NCBI GenBank assembly: GCA_001778985.1
Contig: MFIU01000001.1
Location: 50,111 to 114,110 of the forward strand
Length of the DNA stretch: 64,000 nt
Direction of reading: 5' to 3'
Source of the DNA: Candidatus Giovannonibacteria bacterium RIFOXYD1_FULL_48_21
GTDB lineage: Bacteria; Patescibacteriota; Minisyncoccia; JACPKW01; UBA11713
A program made the position numbers and the translations under genes. The notes beneath the pieces were generated by a model. The model saw only the letters and a program-made list of their open reading frames with translations, was not told the DNA's origin and did not search any database. Each line of letters begins with the position of its first letter. The stretch's first letter is position 1. Positions 7,404 through 49,436 of this stretch are shown one piece after another.

Positions 7404-8810
7404 ATGTTTATGGTATTCAAAAAAATTATCCAAAAAATGCCGTTGTTTTTTCTGTTCTTGATCTTCGCGTTTTCGGTTTCTATCGCTAGGACGGCGGGGG
7501 CTCAACAAACCGCAGGAAGTATTGATATAGCGAGCGGGTCACAACAGCTTTCATCAATAATTATATCAGTAAAAACTGATAAGGCCGAGTATATTGACGG
7601 AGAAAAAATTTTGATTTTCGTAACTGCAGAGAATCAATCTTCTCAAACAGTCATACTTAATTTTAACTCTTCTTATCAAGCGAATTATGTTGTTGACAAA
7701 ACATATAGTTGGTCTAGTGATAAAGCGTTTACACAAGCACTGACTGAAGTAGTGTTGCCGTCATTCGGTACAAAAACCTGGGAATTTATTCATGATACAG
7801 CCGTCAACCCATTATCAGTAGGCACGCATAACATTCAGGGAGAAGTAGTGGGATACGGCAATTCAGAAACTACATTTTCCGTCGCGGCTCCGCCCAGAGA
7901 GTATTTCGAAAGCTTTGAAAATGATTTCGGGGGATGGGTATCCGATCACTTTATTGATTGCGAACACCTCCCGCCGCCCGTAGGGCCTTGTACATTTACA
8001 TGGGGTATTGAACGCTCCACAGCACAGGCACAATATGGTAGCTGGGCGCTTAAAAGCTTTCTTGATGGCAGAAACGACGATGGCACGATTTGGGTGGAAA
8101 AGTCATTTTTGGCGCCCCCAAATTCATCGGTAGTAGATGTAGCTCTTACCTTCTATTTATGGAGCGAAACAGTTTCTCCGGTGAACAATTGGCCCGTTCA
8201 CGCATTCATAGGGTTATTTAATCCGGAAACTGAATTGGATCTTCCTATTATTGGAACAACCGATCGAACAAAAGGATGGCAATCCTATACTTATAAAAAA
8301 ACAATACTAACCGGCGCTGACGGCATGTTTTGGGTTGCATTTGGTTTCGGAGCCGTCTGGGAAGTAGAAAGAACTTATTTCATGGATTCCGTATCAGTAC
8401 AGATAGGCCCCGTGTCGCCCGCTCCCGCGCCGCAAGTAACATTATCCTTCACAAGAAACCTGGCAGGGGGCATGAGTGGCGATGACGTAAAAGAATTACA
8501 GAAAATATTAGCGAGCGATCCGGTGATTTATCCCGAAGGCCTTGTTAGCGGCTATTTTGGGCCCCTTACTCAAAAAGCAGTTATCAGATTCCAAGAGAAA
8601 TACGCCGCCGACATCCTTCTGCCCATAGGAATTGCTCAAGGAACAGGGTTGGTAGGACCAATGACTGTGAAAAAATTGAACGCGATACGGGTCGGCGTGC
8701 CAACAACAACCAGCTTGATTCAATCTCTTCAACTCCAAATTCAAGAATTACAAAAACAGATTGAAGATCTGCAAAACAAAATAAAACAGCTCGGCGGCGA
8801 AAGTAATTAA
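7404..8810 (+). CDS. Secreted protein with a C-terminal peptidoglycan-binding-like domain and a coiled-coil tail
   Basis: N-terminal signal peptide (MFMVFKKIIQKMPLFFLFLIFAFSVSIARTAGA). C-terminal PG_binding_1-like segment (GMSGDDVKELQKILASD...YFGPLTQKAVIRFQEKY). Confidence 0.7.
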   Translation: MFMVFKKIIQKMPLFFLFLIFAFSVSIARTAGAQQTAGSIDIASGSQQLSSIIISVKTDKAEYIDGEKILIFVTAENQSSQTVILNFNSSYQANYVVDKTYSWSSDKAFTQALTEVVLPSFGTKTWEFIHDTAVNPLSVGTHNIQGEVVGYGNSETTFSVAAPPREYFESFENDFGGWVSDHFIDCEHLPPPVGPCTFTWGIERSTAQAQYGSWALKSFLDGRNDDGTIWVEKSFLAPPNSSVVDVALTFYLWSETVSPVNNWPVHAFIGLFNPETELDLPIIGTTDRTKGWQSYTYKKTILTGADGMFWVAFGFGAVWEVERTYFMDSVSVQIGPVSPAPAPQVTLSFTRNLAGGMSGDDVKELQKILASDPVIYPEGLVSGYFGPLTQKAVIRFQEKYAADILLPIGIAQGTGLVGPMTVKKLNAIRVGVPTTTSLIQSLQLQIQELQKQIEDLQNKIKQLGGESN

Positions 8811-17608: not shown

Positions 17609-18316
17609 TCAACTCTCCTTGAAACCCGCCACCGCAAGGTTTCGAAAAGAATTGTTATGCTTGCGGAAAGAAAAATATCCTTTAGGTGAGCAATGAGTGC
17701 ACTCTTTGCAATCTAAAACATTGTGGATTCCAGCGCGATGAAGCTGTTCCGTGATGATTCCGGCCAAGTCCACGAAGTATCGCCTGTTCCTGACCGCGAT
17801 GAAAGAGGGCCAATGAACAAAATTACGGAGCCCGTTTTCATCGTTTCTTACCTCAAAACAGCACCCGCGTATTCCGGGTCCCACGAGCGCGTTGATTTGG
17901 TCGCGCTTCACGACGTATCTCCAGCTAAAAAAATCTACCGCTTTAGGACCAACATTCTTCAGCGTACCGCGCCAGCCGGAATGAATAAGCGAGACCGCCC
18001 ACTCGGAAGAATGTGCCCAGAGAAAAATCATTGGGCAGTCTGCCGCAGCCGCAACTAAAGGTTGGCCTACGCTGTTTGTAATAACGGCGTCCGCTTCTAT
18101 AATTTTTTCTGGATCGCTCACAAAAGCGACTTCATCGCCATGGACAAGTTTAGCCTGGCAAATTCTCCCGGCATCAAACCCAAGACTGGAAACGAATCCA
18201 TCGCGGTTCGCTAACTTTTTAGGACTAGTACCATTTGCCTTAGGCATAGGACCGTGTTCAATGCCAGAGAAAGCCAAAACCAATCCAGGAAAACCCGGAA
18301 TATCTTTTTCTATCAT
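17609..18316 (-). CDS. pgeF: YfiH/PgeF (DUF152) laccase-domain protein. This is the purine nucleoside phosphorylase / peptidoglycan editing factor family.
   Basis: Conserved Cys/His residues (AADCPMIF, HSGWRG, GCCFEV, CTHC). Confidence 0.85.
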   Translation of the reverse strand: MIEKDIPGFPGLVLAFSGIEHGPMPKANGTSPKKLANRDGFVSSLGFDAGRICQAKLVHGDEVAFVSDPEKIIEADAVITNSVGQPLVAAAADCPMIFLWAHSSEWAVSLIHSGWRGTLKNVGPKAVDFFSWRYVVKRDQINALVGPGIRGCCFEVRNDENGLRNFVHWPSFIAVRNRRYFVDLAGIITEQLHRAGIHNVLDCKECTHCSPKGYFSFRKHNNSFRNLAVAGFKES

Positions 18317-18512
18317 CTTTCCATCCCTCCTTGTTATGTTGTTTTTATTTCAGAACCACTTTCGTCTTGATTTAAGCAGAAATAGAAAAATTCCGCAAGA
18401 GGATTGAAATGTATAAAACCATCTTAGCAAGGTGAGAAGCCCTTACTAAAGAGGGGGAATCTGGTATTATTGATATATGCATGATGCCGTCAAAAACCTA
18501 GGTTTGCGGAAC

Positions 18513-18527
18513 GAGAGAGAGAGAGAG
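18513..18527 (+). repeat. (GA)7 dinucleotide microsatellite in the 5' region of the large surface-protein gene
   Basis: gagagagagagagag read directly. It lies between the upstream ATGs (18477/18481/18484) and the main ORF. Confidence 0.9.
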
Positions 18528-18583
18528 TAAAAGCCGCCCGCCTGTCGGCGAGGCAGGCCGCGCTGATATTCTGCGCCGGGGTT

Positions 18584-21500
18584 TTGCTTTTAGGATTGGC
18601 AGCAAAAGCTCAAGCCGCTACTTATTATGTAGATAACACTATCACCGATACGAATGTCGGAAGCGCCACTCCCGATTGCACAAATTACAATACAACCACC
18701 TATACTTGTAGCGGCGGCTCATTAAGCGCATACGCCACCATCGCTGACATCAATGCCTTCTCTACGCTTGCGGCAGGCGATTCAGTCCTTTTCCGCAAAG
18801 GCCAGACTTGGAGGGAACAACTAACTGTTCCGGCTTCTGGCACAAGTGGAAATGTGATTACTTTTGGAGCGTATGGGACGAGTGATATACCTATCATCAG
18901 CGGCGCTGACGTGCTGAGCAGTATGGTAACTTCTTCCGCCTACATTGGCGGATACGTTACGCTGGATGGTACCACGGCGAAATATCTCTCAACCCCGGCA
19001 ACGGCAGGGAATGTGCTCTCAGGTACAAGCTTCCGACTGGAGGTGGATGCAGCCCTTGACGACTACACCACGAGTAGCGAGCAGGATTTAATTTCGAAAG
19101 ATGTATGCTGTACTGACACGAACCGGCACTTCGATTTTATCCTTATCAGTAACAACTTTATAGTGTGGCTGTTTGACGGTGCAGGCGGCGCATGGATGTA
19201 TGCATCGGCTGACATCAGTTCTCTACTAACCGACGGCACCCGTTACAAACTTCGGGCGGATATCGTGCCCGACGACAGTTCCGGAGGCTCGTCGGTCACT
19301 TTCTACTATTCGACGGACGGAATCACATATACACAAATTGGTAGTCCGGCGACAGGAACGAACCATGCACTCAATGCCAACAACACAGACATAGTTACTG
19401 TTGGCCGCCGGGGGGATGCAGCAGGGGCGGCGGCGGGGAAGTTTTATCGGGCACGAGCTTGGAGCGATATTACAGGTACGATCCTTGTGTTGGACATGAA
19501 CGTGGATGATGACACGGCCGCGGCGACCTCTTGGACGTCTTCCACCACCGGAGAAACATGGACGGTATCAGGCAGTGCGGCAATAACTGGGCCAACCAAC
19601 ACGACACTTTACTACCAAGCCAAACCAACGCAACCCAATCAGGTCTTCCGTGATGGCGCAAGGATTACGCAAATCGGAGTTCAGGACCAACTGTCTACGG
19701 GATATTGGTGGTGGAATTCGGGCAACAGCCAAGTGTGGATCTACGACAATCCCAGCGAACACATCGTTGAGGCAAGCCAGCGCGACAATGCCATATATGG
19801 TTTCACCAAGTCATATGTGACCGTCCAGAATTTGCAGACAGAAAAGGCCAACAGCCACGGCGTATACTTCCATAACGGCGGTGTGGAGATGGTGATTGCA
19901 GATGTGACCACGGCATATAACTACCATTCGGGAGTACGCTTCAACGGCACTGCCTCTTCCAACCATACCATTTCAAATAGCAACGCCATCTACAACGGAT
20001 ATTCCGGCCTTGACGCTTACGCCACGGGTGGGTGGATGGTTGACAACAATACCGTCCACGACAACTGTCAATCGACAGTATTCAATTACTGTGCGGGAAT
20101 AAAAGTCGAACCTGGAACAGATACCGCCAATTGCACGGTCACCAATAACCTTGTCTACTCTAATGGCATTGGGAATACGGATTGGCGCGGCGCAGGAATC
20201 TGGCTCGATACGGCGGGAACGGGCTGCGTCATCAAGTACAATAAGGTCTATTCCAATAATCTCATGGGCATCTACCTAGATGCCAGCAATGGAGACGTTG
20301 TTGCGTACAATGTCATTTATAGCAACGGACAGACAGGGGCGATTGACGGAGGAGGGATAGCGGTCTACGGGGACTCGCGACCTACTGCCGACAACTTGGT
20401 TTACGGAAACACGGTCCGTGGCAATCGCGGGCACGGAATCATCGTACAAGGGTCAAACCTTCAAGATGGGTGCACCAGCAATATCGTTAAGAACAATATC
20501 TCAGTTGGCGTGGTTTCGGGCACCAACTTCACCGCTAGCGGCGGATGTGAGAATCCTGGCATCAATGGCTCGGGCAATATCTACACATATAACAACTTCG
20601 GCTCCGAGGTGGCCAACTTTATCGAGTGGGGAAGCGGAGTTTACAAATCCACCTACGCCGACTTTGATACCGCTTACGGGTCAGCAACTCATTCCATAAC
20701 AGGAGACCCCATATTTACTAACGCCGCGGGAAACGACTTCACCCTCCAATCCACCTCTCCCGCCATTAATGCCGGAACGAATCTTGGTTCGGATTATGAC
20801 GACGGGCTTTCTCCCGCGTCAACTTGGCCCTCTTCAGTCACAACCATAGACCAAGACCTTCGCGGTTCTGGCTGGGAAATCGGAGCGTATGTTTATCCGG
20901 TTCCCCAAGTCCCCACCATCGGCACTCCTCAAACTTTGTCCGCTTCATCAATCAGATGGAATTTCACCGACAATGCAGGTGATGAAACGGGATTTAGGTT
21001 ATATGGTGGCAGCGACATTTTATCAGCCACCCGCGATCTGTCTTATCTTGATGAAACATCTTTATCATGCAACACCAGCTATTCGGGCCGCTATGTGGAA
21101 GCCTACAACTCCTACGGCTACAGCACGGCTTCTGGCGTAGCTTCTTCCGTGTCCACTCTTTCCTGCCCCGGCGGCGGTGGGATAATGACTGGTCCGGGCG
21201 GGCTCAAAGCTCCGGAGATTCCCGTTCAAACAGCGCTTTCGGCTCCGACGCCCGCCGAAGGCGGGGTCGGAGTCCCGACACCGAAGGTCGTCGGGACCCC
21301 TTTCGTATTTACTTCCAACCTCAAACTCGGCATGAAAGGAAACGATGTCAAACAGCTCCAGATATTCCTGAATCAGCGCCTTGACGTCCCGCTTGCTAAA
21401 TCAGGAGCCGGCTCGCCGGGAAATGAAACGGACTTTTTCGGGCCTTTGACCAAAGCCGCGGTGATTAGATACCAAGAGCAACACGCCCAAGACATCTTGG

Positions 21501-21586
21501 CTCCTTGGAATTTAACCAAAGGAACGGGCTTTGTTGGAAGAACCACCAGAGCGAAGATTAACGAGATGATGGTGAACAAAAGATGA
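18584..21586 (+). CDS. Large secreted multidomain surface protein (1000 aa). It has a parallel beta-helix repeat region, a lectin/LamG-like region, an FN3-like segment and a C-terminal PG-binding-like domain.
   Basis: Beta-helix repeats (NNTVHDN..., TVTNNLVYSNG, VIKYNKVYSNN, VAYNVIYSNG, LVYGNTVRGN). C-terminal GMKGNDVKQLQIFLNQ...FFGPLTKAAVIRYQEQH. The annotated TTG start falls inside the hydrophobic stretch of a putative signal peptide, so the true start is probably upstream. Confidence 0.75.
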   Translation: MLLGLAAKAQAATYYVDNTITDTNVGSATPDCTNYNTTTYTCSGGSLSAYATIADINAFSTLAAGDSVLFRKGQTWREQLTVPASGTSGNVITFGAYGTSDIPIISGADVLSSMVTSSAYIGGYVTLDGTTAKYLSTPATAGNVLSGTSFRLEVDAALDDYTTSSEQDLISKDVCCTDTNRHFDFILISNNFIVWLFDGAGGAWMYASADISSLLTDGTRYKLRADIVPDDSSGGSSVTFYYSTDGITYTQIGSPATGTNHALNANNTDIVTVGRRGDAAGAAAGKFYRARAWSDITGTILVLDMNVDDDTAAATSWTSSTTGETWTVSGSAAITGPTNTTLYYQAKPTQPNQVFRDGARITQIGVQDQLSTGYWWWNSGNSQVWIYDNPSEHIVEASQRDNAIYGFTKSYVTVQNLQTEKANSHGVYFHNGGVEMVIADVTTAYNYHSGVRFNGTASSNHTISNSNAIYNGYSGLDAYATGGWMVDNNTVHDNCQSTVFNYCAGIKVEPGTDTANCTVTNNLVYSNGIGNTDWRGAGIWLDTAGTGCVIKYNKVYSNNLMGIYLDASNGDVVAYNVIYSNGQTGAIDGGGIAVYGDSRPTADNLVYGNTVRGNRGHGIIVQGSNLQDGCTSNIVKNNISVGVVSGTNFTASGGCENPGINGSGNIYTYNNFGSEVANFIEWGSGVYKSTYADFDTAYGSATHSITGDPIFTNAAGNDFTLQSTSPAINAGTNLGSDYDDGLSPASTWPSSVTTIDQDLRGSGWEIGAYVYPVPQVPTIGTPQTLSASSIRWNFTDNAGDETGFRLYGGSDILSATRDLSYLDETSLSCNTSYSGRYVEAYNSYGYSTASGVASSVSTLSCPGGGGIMTGPGGLKAPEIPVQTALSAPTPAEGGVGVPTPKVVGTPFVFTSNLKLGMKGNDVKQLQIFLNQRLDVPLAKSGAGSPGNETDFFGPLTKAAVIRYQEQHAQDILAPWNLTKGTGFVGRTTRAKINEMMVNKR

Positions 21587-29444: not shown

Positions 29445-31607
29445 ATGGTGACAAAAAAATATACGACTGATTTCGGCGGGAAGACTCTTTCCGTCGAATT
29501 TCCGGACCTCGCCGAGCAGGCCCACGGCTCGGCTTTGGTTCGCCTGGGCGACACCGTGATTCTCGCGACCGCGGTTATGTCTCAAAATATCCGCGAGGGA
29601 ATTGATTATTTTCCTTTGACGGTGGATTACGAAGAGCGTTTTTACGCCGCCGGGAGAATTTTGGGCTCGCGCTTTATCAGGCGCGAGGGACGCCCGTCCG
29701 AAGAGGCGATTTTAATTTCGCGCCTGATTGACCGCGGGCTAAGGCCTCTTTTCAACCACAAAATCAGAAACGAGGTTCAGGTGGTGGCTCTGGCTCTTTC
29801 TTTTGACGGCGAAAACGAGCCGGATATTCCGGCCATTCTCGCGGCCTCACTGGCCTTGGGAACTTCTTCCGTCCCTTGGTCAGGCCCGATCGGCGCTTTA
29901 AGAATAGGAAGAGTCAACGGCGAATTCGTTTTGAATCCGCTCCGCTCGGAGCTTGAAAAATCAGATTTGGACCTGGTCCTCTGCGGCAAGGATGGAAAAA
30001 TAAATATGGCGGAGGCCGGCGCCAAAGAAGTTCCGGAAGAAGAAATACTGAAAGCTCTCGAGTTTAGCCAGAAAAAACTTGAGAAAATCGAAATCTTCCA
30101 AAAAGAAGTTATCCGCGAGCTCGGCCAAGAGAAAGTGATGCCGCCCTTGAAAGAGGAGCCGGAAAAACTCGCTGAAATTTTTGAGAAAAATTTCCGTTCG
30201 CGCCTGGAGGAAACTTTGTATCTCAAGGAAAAGAAAGTCCGAAATCAAACTCTGTTCAAGCTAAAAGAAGAGTGGGACGAGAAAGTTACAAAAGAAGTCG
30301 GAGAAGAATTCAAAGAAGTTCTAAATAGATTTTGGGAAGAAAAAATCGATGAAATCGTCCACAAAAATATTTTGGAGAAAGAACTGCGTCCGGACGGCCG
30401 GGGACTTAAAGAACTCCGTCCGCTCTGGGCCGGAGTAGGAATTTTGCCCAGAATCCACGGCTCCGGACTTTTCTACCGCGGGGAAACTCACGTGCTCTCG
30501 CTCGCGACCTTGGGCGGCCCGGGCGACACCCAGCTCGTGGAAGGGATGAGCATTCGCGCCAAAAAACGCTTCATGCACCACTATAATTTTCCGCCTTTCG
30601 CTCCGGGTGAAACCGGGCGCATGGGAAATCCCGGGCGGCGCGAGATCGGGCACGGGGCGCTCGCGGAACGCTCGCTTTTGCCGATACTGCCGGGGATTTC
30701 CGAATTCCCTTATACGATTCGGGTGGTTTCTGAAGTTCTTTCCTCGAACGGCTCCACTTCCATGGCTTCAGCCTGCGCTTCGACTTTAGCGCTGATGGAT
30801 GCCGGCGTTCCGATAAAACGGCCGGTGGCCGGAATCGCCATGGGACTGGTCATGGAAAATCCGAAATCCGAAATCCGAAATCCGAAATTTAAAGTGCTGA
30901 CCGATATCCAAGGTCCGGAGGACCATTACGGCGATATGGACTTTAAATCCGCCGGAACCTCCCAGGGCGTTAGCGCGATTCAGATGGACGTAAAAGTTTT
31001 GGGAGTAACGCTTGAAATTTTGCGCCAAACTCTCGCCGACGCCAAAGCCGCCCGCGAGAAAATCTTGGCCGTTATGCTCTCGGCCCTACCCGCGCCTCGC
31101 GCCGAGCTCTCCCAATACGCTCCGCGAATCTTGACGCTTAAAATAAATCCGGAGAAAATCCGCGAGCTCATCGGCCCGGGCGGAAAAATGATTAACGCCA
31201 TCATCGCCGAGACCGGGGCCACGATAGACGTGGAACAGGACGGCACCGTCTTCGTCACCGGTTCCAAGGAAGCTTCGGAAAAAGCTTTGGAAAAAATAAA
31301 AGAAGTCACGCACGAATACCAAGTGGGGGAGACTTTCGAAGGTACTATTTCCAGAATTTTTGATTTCGGAGCCATGGTGGAATTCGCGCCCAAGCAGGAA
31401 GGCTTGGTGCATATCTCCGAGCTTGCGCCCTGGCACGTGAAAAACGTTACGGACGTGGTGGATATAGGCGACCGGGTTAAAGTCAAGATAAAAAGCATCG
31501 ACGAGCTGGGGCGCATCAATCTTTCCATCAAAGAGGTGGCAAGTCTTGAACCTAAAAAGCAGGCGGCAAAACCGGCAACATGGAGCCCCAAGCATCAGAG
31601 CCGCTGA
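29445..31607 (+). CDS. pnp: Polyribonucleotide nucleotidyltransferase (PNPase)
   Basis: Two RNase PH domains, a KH domain (IRELIGPGGKMINAII) and a C-terminal S1 domain. Contains an in-frame (AAATCCG)x4 tandem repeat at 30857-30888. Confidence 0.95.
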   Translation: MVTKKYTTDFGGKTLSVEFPDLAEQAHGSALVRLGDTVILATAVMSQNIREGIDYFPLTVDYEERFYAAGRILGSRFIRREGRPSEEAILISRLIDRGLRPLFNHKIRNEVQVVALALSFDGENEPDIPAILAASLALGTSSVPWSGPIGALRIGRVNGEFVLNPLRSELEKSDLDLVLCGKDGKINMAEAGAKEVPEEEILKALEFSQKKLEKIEIFQKEVIRELGQEKVMPPLKEEPEKLAEIFEKNFRSRLEETLYLKEKKVRNQTLFKLKEEWDEKVTKEVGEEFKEVLNRFWEEKIDEIVHKNILEKELRPDGRGLKELRPLWAGVGILPRIHGSGLFYRGETHVLSLATLGGPGDTQLVEGMSIRAKKRFMHHYNFPPFAPGETGRMGNPGRREIGHGALAERSLLPILPGISEFPYTIRVVSEVLSSNGSTSMASACASTLALMDAGVPIKRPVAGIAMGLVMENPKSEIRNPKFKVLTDIQGPEDHYGDMDFKSAGTSQGVSAIQMDVKVLGVTLEILRQTLADAKAAREKILAVMLSALPAPRAELSQYAPRILTLKINPEKIRELIGPGGKMINAIIAETGATIDVEQDGTVFVTGSKEASEKALEKIKEVTHEYQVGETFEGTISRIFDFGAMVEFAPKQEGLVHISELAPWHVKNVTDVVDIGDRVKVKIKSIDELGRINLSIKEVASLEPKKQAAKPATWSPKHQSR

Positions 31608-35833: not shown

Positions 35834-37711
35834 ATGTCAATGGAATTTAGCTTAAATCAGGCTCAAGAAAGGGCTGTATTGACAGCGGACGGCCCAGTAT
35901 TGATAGTAGCAGGGGCTGGTTCAGGCAAAACCATGGTCTTGGCGCACCGCATAGCGCATCTGATTGAAAAAGGCGTCAAGGCAGACCAGATTTTGGCCAT
36001 CACTTTCACCAATAAGGCGGCTGAAGAGATGCGGAATCGCATAAACTCCTTAATTCCCAATTCCCAATTCCCAATTCCCAAACCCTGGGTGGGCACCTTT
36101 CACTCTTTTTCGGCCTTTGTCCTGCGCCAATCAGGCCGGGCCATTGGCGTTGGCAAAACTTTCTCGATTGTGGACGAAGAAGACAGCTTGGCCCTGGTCA
36201 AAGAAGCGCTCGCGGATTTAGAATTGGACCCTAAAAAATTTGAACCAAGAAAACTTCGCGCCCTAATCTCTCGAAAGAAAAACGAAATGGAAGGCCGGGA
36301 AAATTTTAATCAAAGTTATTTTGAAAAAATTCTCGTCCGGGTCTGGGAAAAATATGAAGAGAAGTTGGAAAAAGCCAAAGCGCTCGACTTTGACGACCTG
36401 CTTTTGAAAACCGTGGAACTTTTCTCTAAACACCCCGGGATTTTGGAAGAATGGCAGGAACGCTTCCGCTATCTCCACGTGGACGAATACCAGGACACCA
36501 ATTTGGTGCAGTACCATCTGGCGAAACTTCTCGCCCAAAAATACAGAAATATCTGCGTGGTGGGCGATATTGACCAGGCGATTTACTCCTGGCGCGGCGC
36601 AGACTTCAGAAACATCCTTCATTTCGAACGGGACTGGCCGGAGGCGAAAATAATCACCCTGGAGGAAAATTACCGCTCCACCCAATTGATTCTCGACGCC
36701 GCGAACGCCGTGATTGTCAAAAACAAATCACGCGTTCCTAAAAATCTTTTCTCACAGAAAAAATCCGGCCCCAAGATTACTCTTTTTGAATCCGTAAGCG
36801 AAGAAGAAGAGGCCAGCTTCATCGCGGCGCTTTCCAAAACCCTGGTTCGGGACGGCAAAATCCCGCCGCGGGAGATCGCGGTTCTGTACCGCACCAATTT
36901 CCAGTCGCGGATTCTGGAAGAAAAAATGTTAGAGGAGAATATTCCATACCAAGTGGTGGGCGTTAAATTTTACGAACGAAAAGAAATCAAAGACACGCTC
37001 GCCTACCTCAAGGCCTCGTTAAATAGCGAAGATTTGCTTTCAGTAAAAAGAATAATAAATTTTCCGCCGCGCGGAATCGGGAAAGCGCTTTTGACGAAGT
37101 TTTTGGCTGGAGAAAAATTGCGACAGGCAGAAGAGTTCATAAAAATAACCTCGGAAATTAAAGATGCAATCGAAACAAAAAACGCGAGTGAGGCTGTAAA
37201 AAGCGTCATCCAAAAATCCGGCCTCGAGGACTATCTTCAAGACGGAACAGAGGAAAGCGAGATGAGGCTTTCAAATATAAAAGAACTCGTGACCCTTGCC
37301 AGGCGCTATGACGAAGCTAAACCGCCGGAAGGGATTTTAAAACTTTTGGAGGACGCGGCGTTGATGTCTGAACAGGATACCATGAAAAAGGAAGAGAACT
37401 CCGTGAAACTTATGACCGTGCACGCGGCCAAAGGCCTGGAATTTAAAATGGTTTTTATCGCGGGCCTCGAAGAAGGATTATTTCCGCACCGCGCCATCTC
37501 CAGAGAAGACGAAGAACTGCGCCAGGAAGAAGAAAGACGGCTTTTTTACGTGGCCTTAACCCGCGCCAAGGAGAAAATCTATCTCTCCTACGCCGTTTTT
37601 CGGACTATTTTCGGAGAGCGAAGAATCAATCTTCCGTCGAGTTTTCTCTTGGATATCCCGGAGGAGTTTTTAGAGCGCGCCCCGGATAAAATAATCACTT
37701 TGGAATCATGA
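35834..37711 (+). CDS. pcrA: ATP-dependent DNA helicase PcrA/UvrD, short form
   Basis: GAGSGKT Walker A, DEYQDTN motif II, TVHAAKGLEF motif. Contains an in-frame (AATTCCC)x4 repeat at 36052-36079. Confidence 0.9.
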   Translation: MSMEFSLNQAQERAVLTADGPVLIVAGAGSGKTMVLAHRIAHLIEKGVKADQILAITFTNKAAEEMRNRINSLIPNSQFPIPKPWVGTFHSFSAFVLRQSGRAIGVGKTFSIVDEEDSLALVKEALADLELDPKKFEPRKLRALISRKKNEMEGRENFNQSYFEKILVRVWEKYEEKLEKAKALDFDDLLLKTVELFSKHPGILEEWQERFRYLHVDEYQDTNLVQYHLAKLLAQKYRNICVVGDIDQAIYSWRGADFRNILHFERDWPEAKIITLEENYRSTQLILDAANAVIVKNKSRVPKNLFSQKKSGPKITLFESVSEEEEASFIAALSKTLVRDGKIPPREIAVLYRTNFQSRILEEKMLEENIPYQVVGVKFYERKEIKDTLAYLKASLNSEDLLSVKRIINFPPRGIGKALLTKFLAGEKLRQAEEFIKITSEIKDAIETKNASEAVKSVIQKSGLEDYLQDGTEESEMRLSNIKELVTLARRYDEAKPPEGILKLLEDAALMSEQDTMKKEENSVKLMTVHAAKGLEFKMVFIAGLEEGLFPHRAISREDEELRQEEERRLFYVALTRAKEKIYLSYAVFRTIFGERRINLPSSFLLDIPEEFLERAPDKIITLES

Positions 37712-47429: not shown

Positions 47430-47879
47430 ATGGCTGAAGCAGCTGCAATTGAGAATGCAGAACAAATGGAAGCGGAGCGAAGTATGAAGCTCCAGGAATC
47501 GCGCCTGAGAGCAAGGATTTCCAGAAGCGCCAAGGCTCAAGTGGCGGCCGGAGTCAAAATAGGTTTAGCGGCGGCATTTTTGATGCTTGGTTTTGCTGGT
47601 ATGCTGGATTTAGTAGACTGGCTCGGGGTAGGGTCGATTCCTCTGATCGGAGATATTCTGGACATATTTGGCGGCTTGGTCATTTACTTCTGGGTAAAAA
47701 TTAAGGGTCTTGATCAGAAAAAACCCTGGTACATTTCATGGCTAGCCGGCGGAGGAACGTTAGTGGAACTGATACCGGGCGGAGATATTCTTCCTTCATA
47801 TATTTTGACGGTCCTAGTAATCATAATCGTCAATACCTCGTGGGGTCAAAGATGGGCAAAGTTTCTCTCGCCAATATGA
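47430..47879 (+). CDS. Hypothetical membrane protein (149 aa)
   Basis: Charged N-terminus followed by three hydrophobic helices. Confidence 0.5.
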   Translation: MAEAAAIENAEQMEAERSMKLQESRLRARISRSAKAQVAAGVKIGLAAAFLMLGFAGMLDLVDWLGVGSIPLIGDILDIFGGLVIYFWVKIKGLDQKKPWYISWLAGGGTLVELIPGGDILPSYILTVLVIIIVNTSWGQRWAKFLSPI

Positions 47880-48874
47880 AATTTTGGATTTTAAATATAA
47901 TTTATATAATATTAGGAATATTGCTACTGCCAGCTCTTTCCGCCCAGGCCCAGCTTAGACTTCCGGGAGGGGCAAGCCTTTCCATAAAAATTTCTCCGGA
48001 ATTTCCGGATCCCGGAGCAGAAGTAAGGGCGGAGCTTCTCTCTTATAGTCTTGACGTGAACCGGGCCAGTATCACCTGGGCGCTCGACGGAAAAGCGCTG
48101 GCAAGCGGCGTTGGGGTTAAAGAAGTTTCGTTCAAAGCGGCCGCTCATGGTGCAAAAAATACTTTAAGCGCGAGTGCGACGAGCCCGGGCGGCGAAAGAT
48201 TCGAAACTTCGGTCGTTATCCGGCCTCAATCTGTGGACCTGATTCTTGACGCGAAAAGCCGCGTACCTCACTGGTACCGGGGCGCCGCGCTTCCCATTTC
48301 AAGAACCAGGGTGGTGGTGAGCGCGATTCCTAATTTCATCTCCAGCGGCGCCAGAATCAATCCTTCTTCCCTGCAATATGAATGGAGGGTTGACCGCCGA
48401 TTGATATCGGACTTTTCAGGGCGCGGCAAAGACAGCATTTCGGTTTTGACTCCGGGTCTAGGTGAAGTCGCCAAAGAAGTCATGGTCAAAGTAAGTTCGT
48501 CTGACGCTAGCTTGGTCAAAGAGGCGCGCGCGATGGTTCAGGCTTTTTCTCCAGAGATTCTTTTTTATGAGCGGCTGCCCCTCGAAGGAATTAAAACCTC
48601 TTTGGCCTTAAGGACTAAAAATCTTTTCGCCGGAGGCGAGTTCGAAGTCCAAGCCGTGCCTTTTTCCATGAATTACTCCTCTCTCTCTGACCTAAGTTTC
48701 TCCTGGAGCTTTGACGGCAACGCTACCGACCCCCTCTCTGGAGAGCCGGACACGCTCCTCGTAAAAACCGGTGGCGGCTCCGAGGGCCAATCGGGTTTGA
48801 TAGGAATCTTGGTATCAAATCTTAAAACTTTATTCGAATCGGTAAACGCGTCTTTCGATGTCAATATCCAGTAA
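47876..48874 (+). CDS. Hypothetical secreted protein
   Basis: Start set at MKFWILNIIYIILGILLLPALSAQA (a signal peptide). The ORF track's 47738 start overlaps the previous gene. Confidence 0.5.
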   Translation: MKFWILNIIYIILGILLLPALSAQAQLRLPGGASLSIKISPEFPDPGAEVRAELLSYSLDVNRASITWALDGKALASGVGVKEVSFKAAAHGAKNTLSASATSPGGERFETSVVIRPQSVDLILDAKSRVPHWYRGAALPISRTRVVVSAIPNFISSGARINPSSLQYEWRVDRRLISDFSGRGKDSISVLTPGLGEVAKEVMVKVSSSDASLVKEARAMVQAFSPEILFYERLPLEGIKTSLALRTKNLFAGGEFEVQAVPFSMNYSSLSDLSFSWSFDGNATDPLSGEPDTLLVKTGGGSEGQSGLIGILVSNLKTLFESVNASFDVNIQ

Positions 48875-49436
48875 AAAAATAATTTTATTTGCGGCCCTGC
48901 TTCTGATTTTGGGAGCGTCAAACGTTCAGGCGCTTGAAATCACGGCTGGAGCTTCAGCGCAGCCTCCTAATGATTTTCTAAGCTACGCAAAATTTCTCTA
49001 TCCGTTCGCGCTTTCCGTGGCCGCGGTCTTGGCGGTAATCATGATAATAATCGCCGGGCTTGAAATGATGACCGCTTCCGAGGGCCTTCGCGAAGACGCC
49101 AAGAAAAAAATCTGGGGCGCGGTTCTGGGGCTTTTGCTTGCAGTCGGCTCCTTTCTGATTTTACGCACTATAAATCCGCAGCTGATAAATTTAAATATAG
49201 ACACGAGCAGATTAGAAGTCATCACCCCAATCACCCCAGGTCCTGGACCGGGGCCAGGCGGTGTAGCTGACTGTATCGTAGATGGAAGGACATTTGAACT
49301 GACTAGAGCGCAATGCGCTTCTCACGGTGGCTGTTTTAAGAGTGGACGTATATTTGAGCTAACTAAAGCACAATGTGATTCTCACCAAGGTTGTTTTATC
49401 GGAACAGTCGGGAGTATAGGCGACTGCCACATATAA
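48858..49436 (+). CDS. Pilin-like protein (TrbC/VirB2-like topology) with a Cys-rich duplicated C-terminal motif
   Basis: Signal peptide, then two TM helices separated by TASEGLREDAKKK, then two copies of (T/I)FELT(R/K)AQC(A/D)SH(G/Q)GCF. Confidence 0.5.
   Translation: MSISSKKIILFAALLLILGASNVQALEITAGASAQPPNDFLSYAKFLYPFALSVAAVLAVIMIIIAGLEMMTASEGLREDAKKKIWGAVLGLLLAVGSFLILRTINPQLINLNIDTSRLEVITPITPGPGPGPGGVADCIVDGRTFELTRAQCASHGGCFKSGRIFELTKAQCDSHQGCFIGTVGSIGDCHI

Follow-up and report, generated by a model that had tools for sequence, protein, structure and literature searches.

In the genome of an uncultivated Candidatus Giovannonibacteria bacterium (RIFOXYD1_FULL_48_21), a metagenome-assembled genome (MAG) from aquifer metagenomes, an open reading frame (ORF) of 1000 codons for a predicted surface protein is preceded by a perfect (GA)7 tract, and the one usable ATG upstream of this tract lies in a different reading frame. 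The question hence arises how, and under which circumstances, a protein could be made from such a gene. The locus was analysed within a stretch of 64,000 nucleotides (contig MFIU01000001.1 of assembly GCA_001778985.1, positions 50,111 to 114,110), hereafter called the window, to which all coordinates given without a locus name refer. From our point of view, it is likely that the tract represents a slipped-strand contingency switch, namely a simple sequence repeat within the coding leader at the 5' end of the gene for a secreted, peptidoglycan (PG)-binding beta-helix protein, and that this switch has been captured here in its OFF state.

The region reads ...TGGTATTATTGATAT-ATG-CATGATGCCGTCAAAAACCTAGGTTTGCGGAAC-(GA)7G-TAAAAGCCGCC..., and the coordinates of its features are collected in Table 1. 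The tract itself (GAGAGAGAGAGAGAG) is reported by Tandem Repeats Finder with a period of 2, 7.5 copies and 100% matches, and an earlier note on this DNA had described it correctly in every particular. It is the sole dinucleotide tract of at least six units across the 64-kb window, in which 0.03 GA runs of 14 bases would be expected, and none of 100 dinucleotide-preserving shuffles equalled the observed count. Translation from ATG 18477 (frame 0) yields the peptide MHDAVKNLGLRNERERE of 17 aa and then ends at the TAA that directly follows the tract. The long ORF (frame 2) is preceded by TGA 18482, is open from 18485 to 21586 and reads CRQKPRFAERERERVKAARLSARQAALIFCAGV upstream of its annotated start. 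The first ATG, GTG or TTG of this frame in the ORF listing is TTG 18584, and a start there would cut into the hydrophobic core of the signal peptide. The earlier note had given the same account of the two frames, to which it can be added that the main frame contains the rare near-cognate codons CTG 18542, CTG 18563 and ATA 18566. When the tract length was varied in silico, ATG 18477 became fused to the ORF only at n = 3, 6, 9 or 12 units (1033-1039 aa); n = 7 gave the 17-aa peptide, and n = 5 and n = 8 gave dead-end ORFs of 51 and 53 aa. The prediction that a loss of one unit would join the ATG to a complete signal peptide thus holds for the n = 6 variant, and a protein fragment described below matches it. 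The (GA)7G element is an uninterrupted, slippage-prone simple sequence repeat, and its unit length is not a multiple of three, so that at this position changes in unit number alter the reading frame, as is characteristic of translational phase variation.

Table 1. Features of the leader and the gene behind it (window coordinates).
Feature	Position	Strand	Remarks
Putative promoter, extended -10-like box TGGTATTAT	18463..18471	+	5 nt upstream of ATG 18477
Proposed true start ATG and 12 leader codons (MHDAVKNLGLRN)	18477..18512	+	Out of frame with the main ORF at (GA)7
AGG in place of the second ATG found in the sister species (MFAARERERVKAL...)	18500..18502	+	CTATGTTTGCGGCAC in L055/L035 versus CTAGGTTTGCGGAAC in the window
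(GA)7G, proposed mutable element	18513..18527	+	Predicted ON at n divisible by 3; OFF at n = 5, 7 (observed) and 8
TAA adjoining the tract, where the ATG-initiated frame ends at n = 7	18528..18530	+	From the sequence and the in-silico variants
Predicted signal peptide VKAARLSARQAALIFCAGVLLLGLAAKAQA: charged n-region, hydrophobic core, AQA cleavage motif	18527..18616	+	Main-frame codons; mature start ATYYVD at 18617
ORF as annotated, TTG start, 1000 aa and stop	18584..21586	+	Predicted secreted, cell-wall-bound right-handed beta-helix protein

Where, then, does translation begin? In public databases the gene is called either from TTG 18584 (1000 aa, OGF96302.1) or from TTG 18596 (996 aa, OGF65882.1 and others), and the exact 1000-aa product is found on 21 public contigs. 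Both calls leave the protein without a usable signal peptide; in the former, the mature ATYYVD is preceded by just MLLGLAAKAQA, too few residues for such a peptide. Orthologues that start at the same TTG and lack a signal peptide, the existence of which the earlier note had considered, were not found. All homologues carry N-terminal signal sequences of 20-70 aa that end just before (A/T)TYYVD, as for example in P0016 (MKKTALILLCASFLFFGLTVKAQA|ATYYVDN). The start contexts in the window point in the same direction. All 44 long ORFs examined begin with ATG, an SD (Shine-Dalgarno)-like motif is present in only 10 of them, and in many a TATAAT-like box precedes the ATG by 5-9 nt, a pattern that suggests leaderless or very short-leader mRNAs to be widespread in this genome. 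ATG 18477 fits this usual arrangement of box and ATG, whereas TTG 18584 is accompanied by neither an SD motif nor a -10-like box. A generic sigma-70 promoter scan made no call on the + strand, the box upstream of ATG 18477 included, and the proposed -10-like box hence rests on the comparison with other gene starts in the window. The start context TTATTATTGAAGATATG is kept in the closest relative, L049, where it is even duplicated: at 447-487 of that locus GTTATTATTGAAGATAT stands in tandem (17 nt x2), which places two ATGs in different frames before a (GA)8 tract, and a third ATG overlaps the start of the tract. Because of the box context, the exclusive use of ATG in the 44 ORFs and the signal sequences of the homologues, ATG 18477 represents the credible start; the mRNA would probably be leaderless or have a very short leader. 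The two public TTG starts are artefacts of the OFF phase. The GA run was also considered as an SD-like element serving a downstream start, which we rejected since no ATG, GTG or TTG lies 5-13 nt after the tract.

According to the proposed mechanism, ribosomes would start at ATG 18477, and only where n is a multiple of three would they cross (GA)n in the frame of the signal peptide and the 1000-aa body. At (GA)7 they would halt at TAA 18528 after 17 residues, and the gene would be phase-OFF because its body then has neither a start codon nor a usable signal peptide. Whenever replication added or removed GA units, the frame would shift, and the ON state could be reached by the loss of one unit or the gain of two. 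Switching in this species would presumably be frequent and reversible, and its benefit would lie in varying what the cell exposes to host cells or phages.

The protein that would be controlled in this way has a Beta_helix domain at aa 403-569 (19790-20290), a NosD match and a PG_binding_1 domain at aa 919-967 (21338-21484) according to Pfam. A sequence search of the PDB returned only AlgG-type beta-helices, with a weak match to the beta-helix of the AlgG C5-epimerase. In its fused form, the predicted product combines an N-terminal signal sequence with an AQA|A cleavage motif, the Beta_helix region and the C-terminal PG_binding_1 domain. It can therefore be read as a secreted, wall-bound protein that would be exposed at the surface and is probably carbohydrate-active. 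By tblastn, only one full member of the family is present in the window; its C-terminal PG-binding domain recurs in ORF 7404-8810.

It has to be asked whether (GA)7 is real at all. The earlier note had left room for a sequencing or assembly artefact in the dinucleotide repeat of a metagenome contig, a possibility for which only the general difficulty of assembling repeats speaks. Exactly (GA)7 together with the identical leader is present in 7/7 assemblies of this population (L001-L005, L030 (GCA_003510385.1) and L031). These assemblies differ in sample, assembler and archive of origin and comprise ANAN16 scaffolds, k141 MEGAHIT-style contigs, Logan assemblies and an NCBI MAG. Runs that contain this population include SRR2177986, SRR6487560 and SRR3989339 as well as those behind ERZ28563774, ERZ28563660 and ERZ4903072. 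Because the same tract and flanks occur in seven separately assembled contigs, assembly error is excluded, and we assign a negligible probability to an artefact of any kind.

The same invariance of (GA)7 in all seven assemblies speaks for another explanation, namely that the gene has been inactivated recently, with the GA tract as a mutational hot spot in which a frameshift became fixed, and that we are looking at a young pseudogene instead of a maintained switch. The AGG found at the second-ATG position of the sister species can be counted in its favour as well. Against it stands the intact body of the gene, which shows no stop and no further frameshift over 1000 codons. A further point against it is the existence of an in-frame (GA)6 product of this very gene: P0009, a protein fragment of 171 aa from SRR3989339 in the SRC catalogue that falls into the 90% cluster of the protein, begins MHDAVKTLGLRNERERVKAARLSARQAALIFCAGVLLLGLAAKAQAATYY..., with MHDAVKTLGLRNERERVKAARL at its N-terminus, and is identical to the predicted n = 6 fusion except for one substitution. 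As evidence for switching in this species, P0009 is suggestive and inconclusive.

Several points weigh against a switch that operates in this species. Its only ON allele is the 171-aa fragment P0009. Its source catalogue was, as we take it, assembled at the protein level (Plass), and P0009 could consequently stem from minority or stutter reads. A look-up of DNA for this (GA)6 fragment returned no record, an exact look-up of the full-length fused proteins with n = 3, 6 and 9 in a collection of 15 billion proteins found none of them, and the seven DNA assemblies that were read contain no tract length other than (GA)7. The samples largely represent one aquifer population, so that the assemblies are not independent populations, and seven units make a modest tract. 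A scan of JGI metagenomes for tract-length variants of this species with the pattern GGTTTGCGGAAC-N{4,30}-GTAAAAGCCGCCCGCCTG gave 0 matches, and a scan of GTDB genomes did not return the species' own locus.

Support for a switch comes from the locus of a sister species (Giovannonibacteria RIFCSPLOWO2_02_FULL_45_28 / GW2011_GWC1_45_13), which shows 63-65% identity over the N-terminal ~130 residues. The similarity between the window and this locus (L035) starts at ATG 18477, and the architecture is alike, with ATG-MPDTIKNLCLRH-(GA)8-GTAAAAGCC in L007-L010, L034 and L035 and the body in the other OFF frame. An indel of 21 nt (7 codons) between the tract and the TTG distinguishes the two species and keeps the frame. 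In L055, an assembly from another groundwater run, the sister tract is (GA)7 as opposed to (GA)8 in the six assemblies just named, with 0 differences in the 1400 bases upstream and the 1880 bases downstream. A sister locus with n = 7 is present in run SRR1658466. Of these two alleles, n = 8 is OFF and n = 7 is ON by means of a second in-frame ATG, the product of which is P0172 (MFAARERERVKALTLIF...). In the window that position is AGG, so there is no start codon in the main frame and n = 7 is OFF. The comparison of tract lengths in relatives that the earlier note had proposed thus yielded one OFF and one ON allele, and together with P0009 and the N-termini of the homologues it lends support to the phase-variable reading of the earlier note. 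Sister alleles that are ON and OFF and differ in nothing but tract length also argue against a pseudogene.

There is, however, a complication at the sister locus. Its gene is split in every assembly by a second frameshift at a G7 run (L035 2763-2769, corresponding to L055 2862-2868), the leader-ON assembly included; the rest of the beta-helix, 185 codons or more, is encoded in a different frame. This frameshift may represent a second switch, or it may reflect early decay rather than regulation, and in the latter case it would weigh on the side of the pseudogene. A comparison of substitution rates between the window and the sister gave a ratio of nonsynonymous to synonymous rates (dN/dS) of ~0.35, with synonymous divergence (dS) near saturation (pS 0.70) and poor alignment beyond the first ~130 residues. 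Because of this near-saturation, and because the two genes share an N-terminal module and are not clean orthologues, the value was not used as evidence.

If the tract were merely a place where genes break, one would expect such gene-destroying hot spots to be purged and not kept across species. Homologues that share the N-terminal module were collected from JGI metagenomes, GTDB genomes and protein collections, and they show (GA)7-14 at the same place as the window tract, (CT)5-16 or poly-G of 9-11 bases. Within a set of 23 non-redundant homologue loci, 10/11 simple repeats ((GA)n, (CT)n, poly-G and one T9) fall into the 250 bp before the YYVD motif, a region that makes up 9.4% of the bases (binomial p=5.6e-10). 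Perfect repeats of three kinds hence occupy the same functional spot in 10/23 loci, which is difficult to reconcile with a young pseudogene, and we regard this explanation as unlikely. Homologues outside the Candidate Phyla Radiation (CPR), from Terracidiphilus and Nitrospiraceae, carry no such tracts.

Both ON alleles (P0009, P0172, L028, L029, L049, L051, L036 and L038) and OFF alleles (the window, L035, L013, L033 and L037) are found in the family. Tracts that are ON comprise (GA)8 (L028, L029, L049/L050), (GA)10 (L056), (GA)14 (L051-L054) and (CT)5 (L038); those that are OFF include (CT)6 (L013) and G10 (L033), and two paralogues of one MAG combine G9 ON (L036) with G11 OFF (L037). In two NCBI MAGs, (CT)15 versus (CT)16 is the sole difference over 4,800 otherwise identical flanking bases, and the two CT counts are read from two ATGs, one for each (L057 and L058). 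Such a pair of ATGs in two frames upstream of the repeat is present in several homologues (L057/L058 1001-1045, L055 1478-1530, L049 469-530, L051 232-292 and L033 1346-1400), and as a result two of the three repeat phases yield a full-length protein there. A GAGAG-TAA or TAG directly after the tract, as in the window, recurs in L035, L049, L028, L029/L056 and L021.

The repeats can also be recognised in the proteins, where leaders coded as ERERE- or LSLSLS recur in P0013, P0018, P0055, P0084, P0090, P0118, P0153 and P0138 (141 representatives at 50% identity). A search for members of the family found ~13,000. The tracts are always perfect and free of synonymous interruptions, and they are read in different frames by different species (ERER-VKA or ERERE-SK). 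Consequently, it is the DNA repeat and not the peptide that is conserved, and selection on an ERER peptide, which would be compatible neither with the species-dependent frame nor with zero synonymous interruptions, was rejected.

Two further homologues carry repeats in other arrangements. In L021 (655-697), a family member equipped with an in-frame ATG and a signal peptide of its own is preceded, at a distance of ~100 nt, by a (GA)7 mini-ORF (MQNILGKIERERE, then a stop). This mini-ORF may represent the relic of a leader, or else a repeat acting in the 5' untranslated region or at the promoter. In the Taylorbacteria homologue L042 (1335-1344, 1405-1420), a G10 run is located between two TATAAT-like boxes upstream of the ATG, which looks like a promoter-spacer type of switch, and the leader retains only a short in-frame (GA)3 relic, YERVKAS.

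Apart from a switch, one could imagine that the protein is made in spite of (GA)7, either from a non-canonical start (CTG 18542, giving MSARQAALIFCAGVLLLGLAAKAQA) or by a 2-nt slippage of the ribosome or of transcription, with the tract serving to tune expression. CTG 18542, CTG 18563 and ATA 18566 are indeed in frame, the window shares CTGATATTC with L035 and L049, a GC-rich hairpin (18536-18558) lies downstream of the tract, and by reasoning alone a slip of 2 nt within a dinucleotide repeat would leave the tRNA with perfect pairing. However, CTG 18542 and the hairpin belong to the 21-nt segment that is absent from the sister locus, and the near-cognate codons are provided with neither an SD motif nor a -10-like box. 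The shift that would be needed also varies (-1 in the window, +1 in L035, none in L028, L029 and L049), unlike at conserved programmed frameshift sites. The RNA fold of 18470-18600 is no better than that of shuffled sequences (z=0.10), for which reason a structured leader or frameshift stimulator was rejected, and an Rfam search over 18200-18800 at E<=1 gave no match. A programmed ribosomal frameshift site can be dismissed on these grounds, and expression despite (GA)7 as a whole appears quite improbable to us.

The contingency switch hence remains our preferred reading of the window gene. On balance, we also favour a wider view, in which the (GA)n-GTAAA leader and its (CT)n and poly-G equivalents would form an evolutionarily maintained contingency cassette. 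The TYYVD-type beta-helix surface proteins that share it would make up a large family found throughout the Patescibacteria (Giovannonibacteria, Moranbacteria, Taylorbacteria and other Paceibacterota).

As for other repeats in the window, a simple-repeat scan found only a (CT)5 (48679-48688) towards the 3' end of ORF 47738-48874, an ORF that runs into the beginning of a T4SS-pilin-like ORF (48858-49436), and a C7 (17283-17289) inside an RNase_T-family gene on the minus strand. Two perfect heptanucleotide repeats are present besides, namely AAATCCG x4.6 at 30857-30888 in the PNPase gene (29445-31607; peptide ENPKSEIRNPKF) and AATTCCC x4.3 at 36052-36081 in a UvrD-type helicase gene (35834-37711; peptide LIPNSQFPIPKP). 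As a unit of seven is not a multiple of three, a change by one unit would cause a frameshift in either gene.

Phase variation by simple repeats is textbook knowledge for the host-adapted pathogens Helicobacter, Neisseria, Haemophilus, Campylobacter and Mycoplasma. The CPR or Patescibacteria comprise very small bacteria, uncultivated and living on the surface of other microbes, and to our knowledge very little is known about how they handle contact with hosts and phages. A full-text literature search found no paper on repeat-driven phase variation in these organisms, and what is new here is the presence of an established type of switch in a lineage and a protein family for which we found no earlier description. 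Should our reading prove true, it would represent the first contingency-locus system described in the CPR, and ultra-small groundwater episymbionts would use stochastic ON/OFF switching of surface proteins in the style of pathogens, often with two ATGs and thus two of three phases ON. The setting would presumably be one of conflict with host cells or phages. If these switchable surface proteins form a conserved family, they would further mark molecules under fluctuating selection at the interface with hosts and phages, and would account for routine mis-annotation in the form of truncated TTG starts and split genes. The idea is directly testable with existing metagenome reads and metaproteomes.

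Among known systems, the closest in design are the outer-membrane protein genes of Helicobacter pylori. In oipA, CT repeats are located in the signal-peptide region, and their unit number sets the frame and hence the ON or OFF state by slipped-strand mispairing (PMC10564699). The window gene resembles oipA (hopH), sabA, sabB and hopZ in the placement of its dinucleotide repeat, which follows the ATG of a surface-protein gene and precedes the end of its signal-peptide region. Some homologues (L013, L038, L057/L058) even have a (CT)n tract coding for LSLSLS, just as H. pylori does. The window gene differs in that its coding strand reads GA and that the repeat falls into the n-region, before the hydrophobic core. 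There is no sequence homology between the porin-like Hop proteins of the outer membrane and the beta-helix and PG-binding protein described here, and the organism is not an animal pathogen but an uncultivated aquifer bacterium of the CPR, whose protein has a PG-binding cell-wall anchor. Membership in the Hop or Opa families was rejected in view of the Pfam (only Beta_helix, NosD and PG_binding_1) and PDB (AlgG-type) matches, and the likeness is one of mechanism.

The opa genes of Neisseria carry CTCTT pentamers in the region coding for the signal peptide and form a multigene family of surface proteins, the paralogues of which are independently ON or OFF. A conserved 5' leader with a coding repeat is common to both cases, and L036 (G9, ON) and L037 (G11, OFF) provide two paralogues in different states within one MAG. 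The opa genes differ in their pentamer units and in the proteins they encode, and the window holds only one full family member. In lic1 and lic2A of Haemophilus influenzae, (CAAT)n is combined with alternative ATGs in different frames, which is comparable to the two start codons in two frames before the repeat in L055/L035, L057/L058, L049, L051 and L033. The lic repeats, however, have tetranucleotide units and control cytoplasmic enzymes of lipooligosaccharide biosynthesis, and the window gene has only one usable ATG. Homopolymers make up the contingency loci of Campylobacter jejuni and Mycoplasma, including poly-G contingency genes. The poly-G runs of 9-11 bases in the leader or promoter of L033, L036, L037 and L042 are similar to these, whereas the window tract is a dinucleotide repeat and the lineages are unrelated. 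Within the CPR itself, the nearest case is the hypervariable in-frame PTD repeat of a Gracilibacterium (PMC6851277), which represents a different phenomenon.

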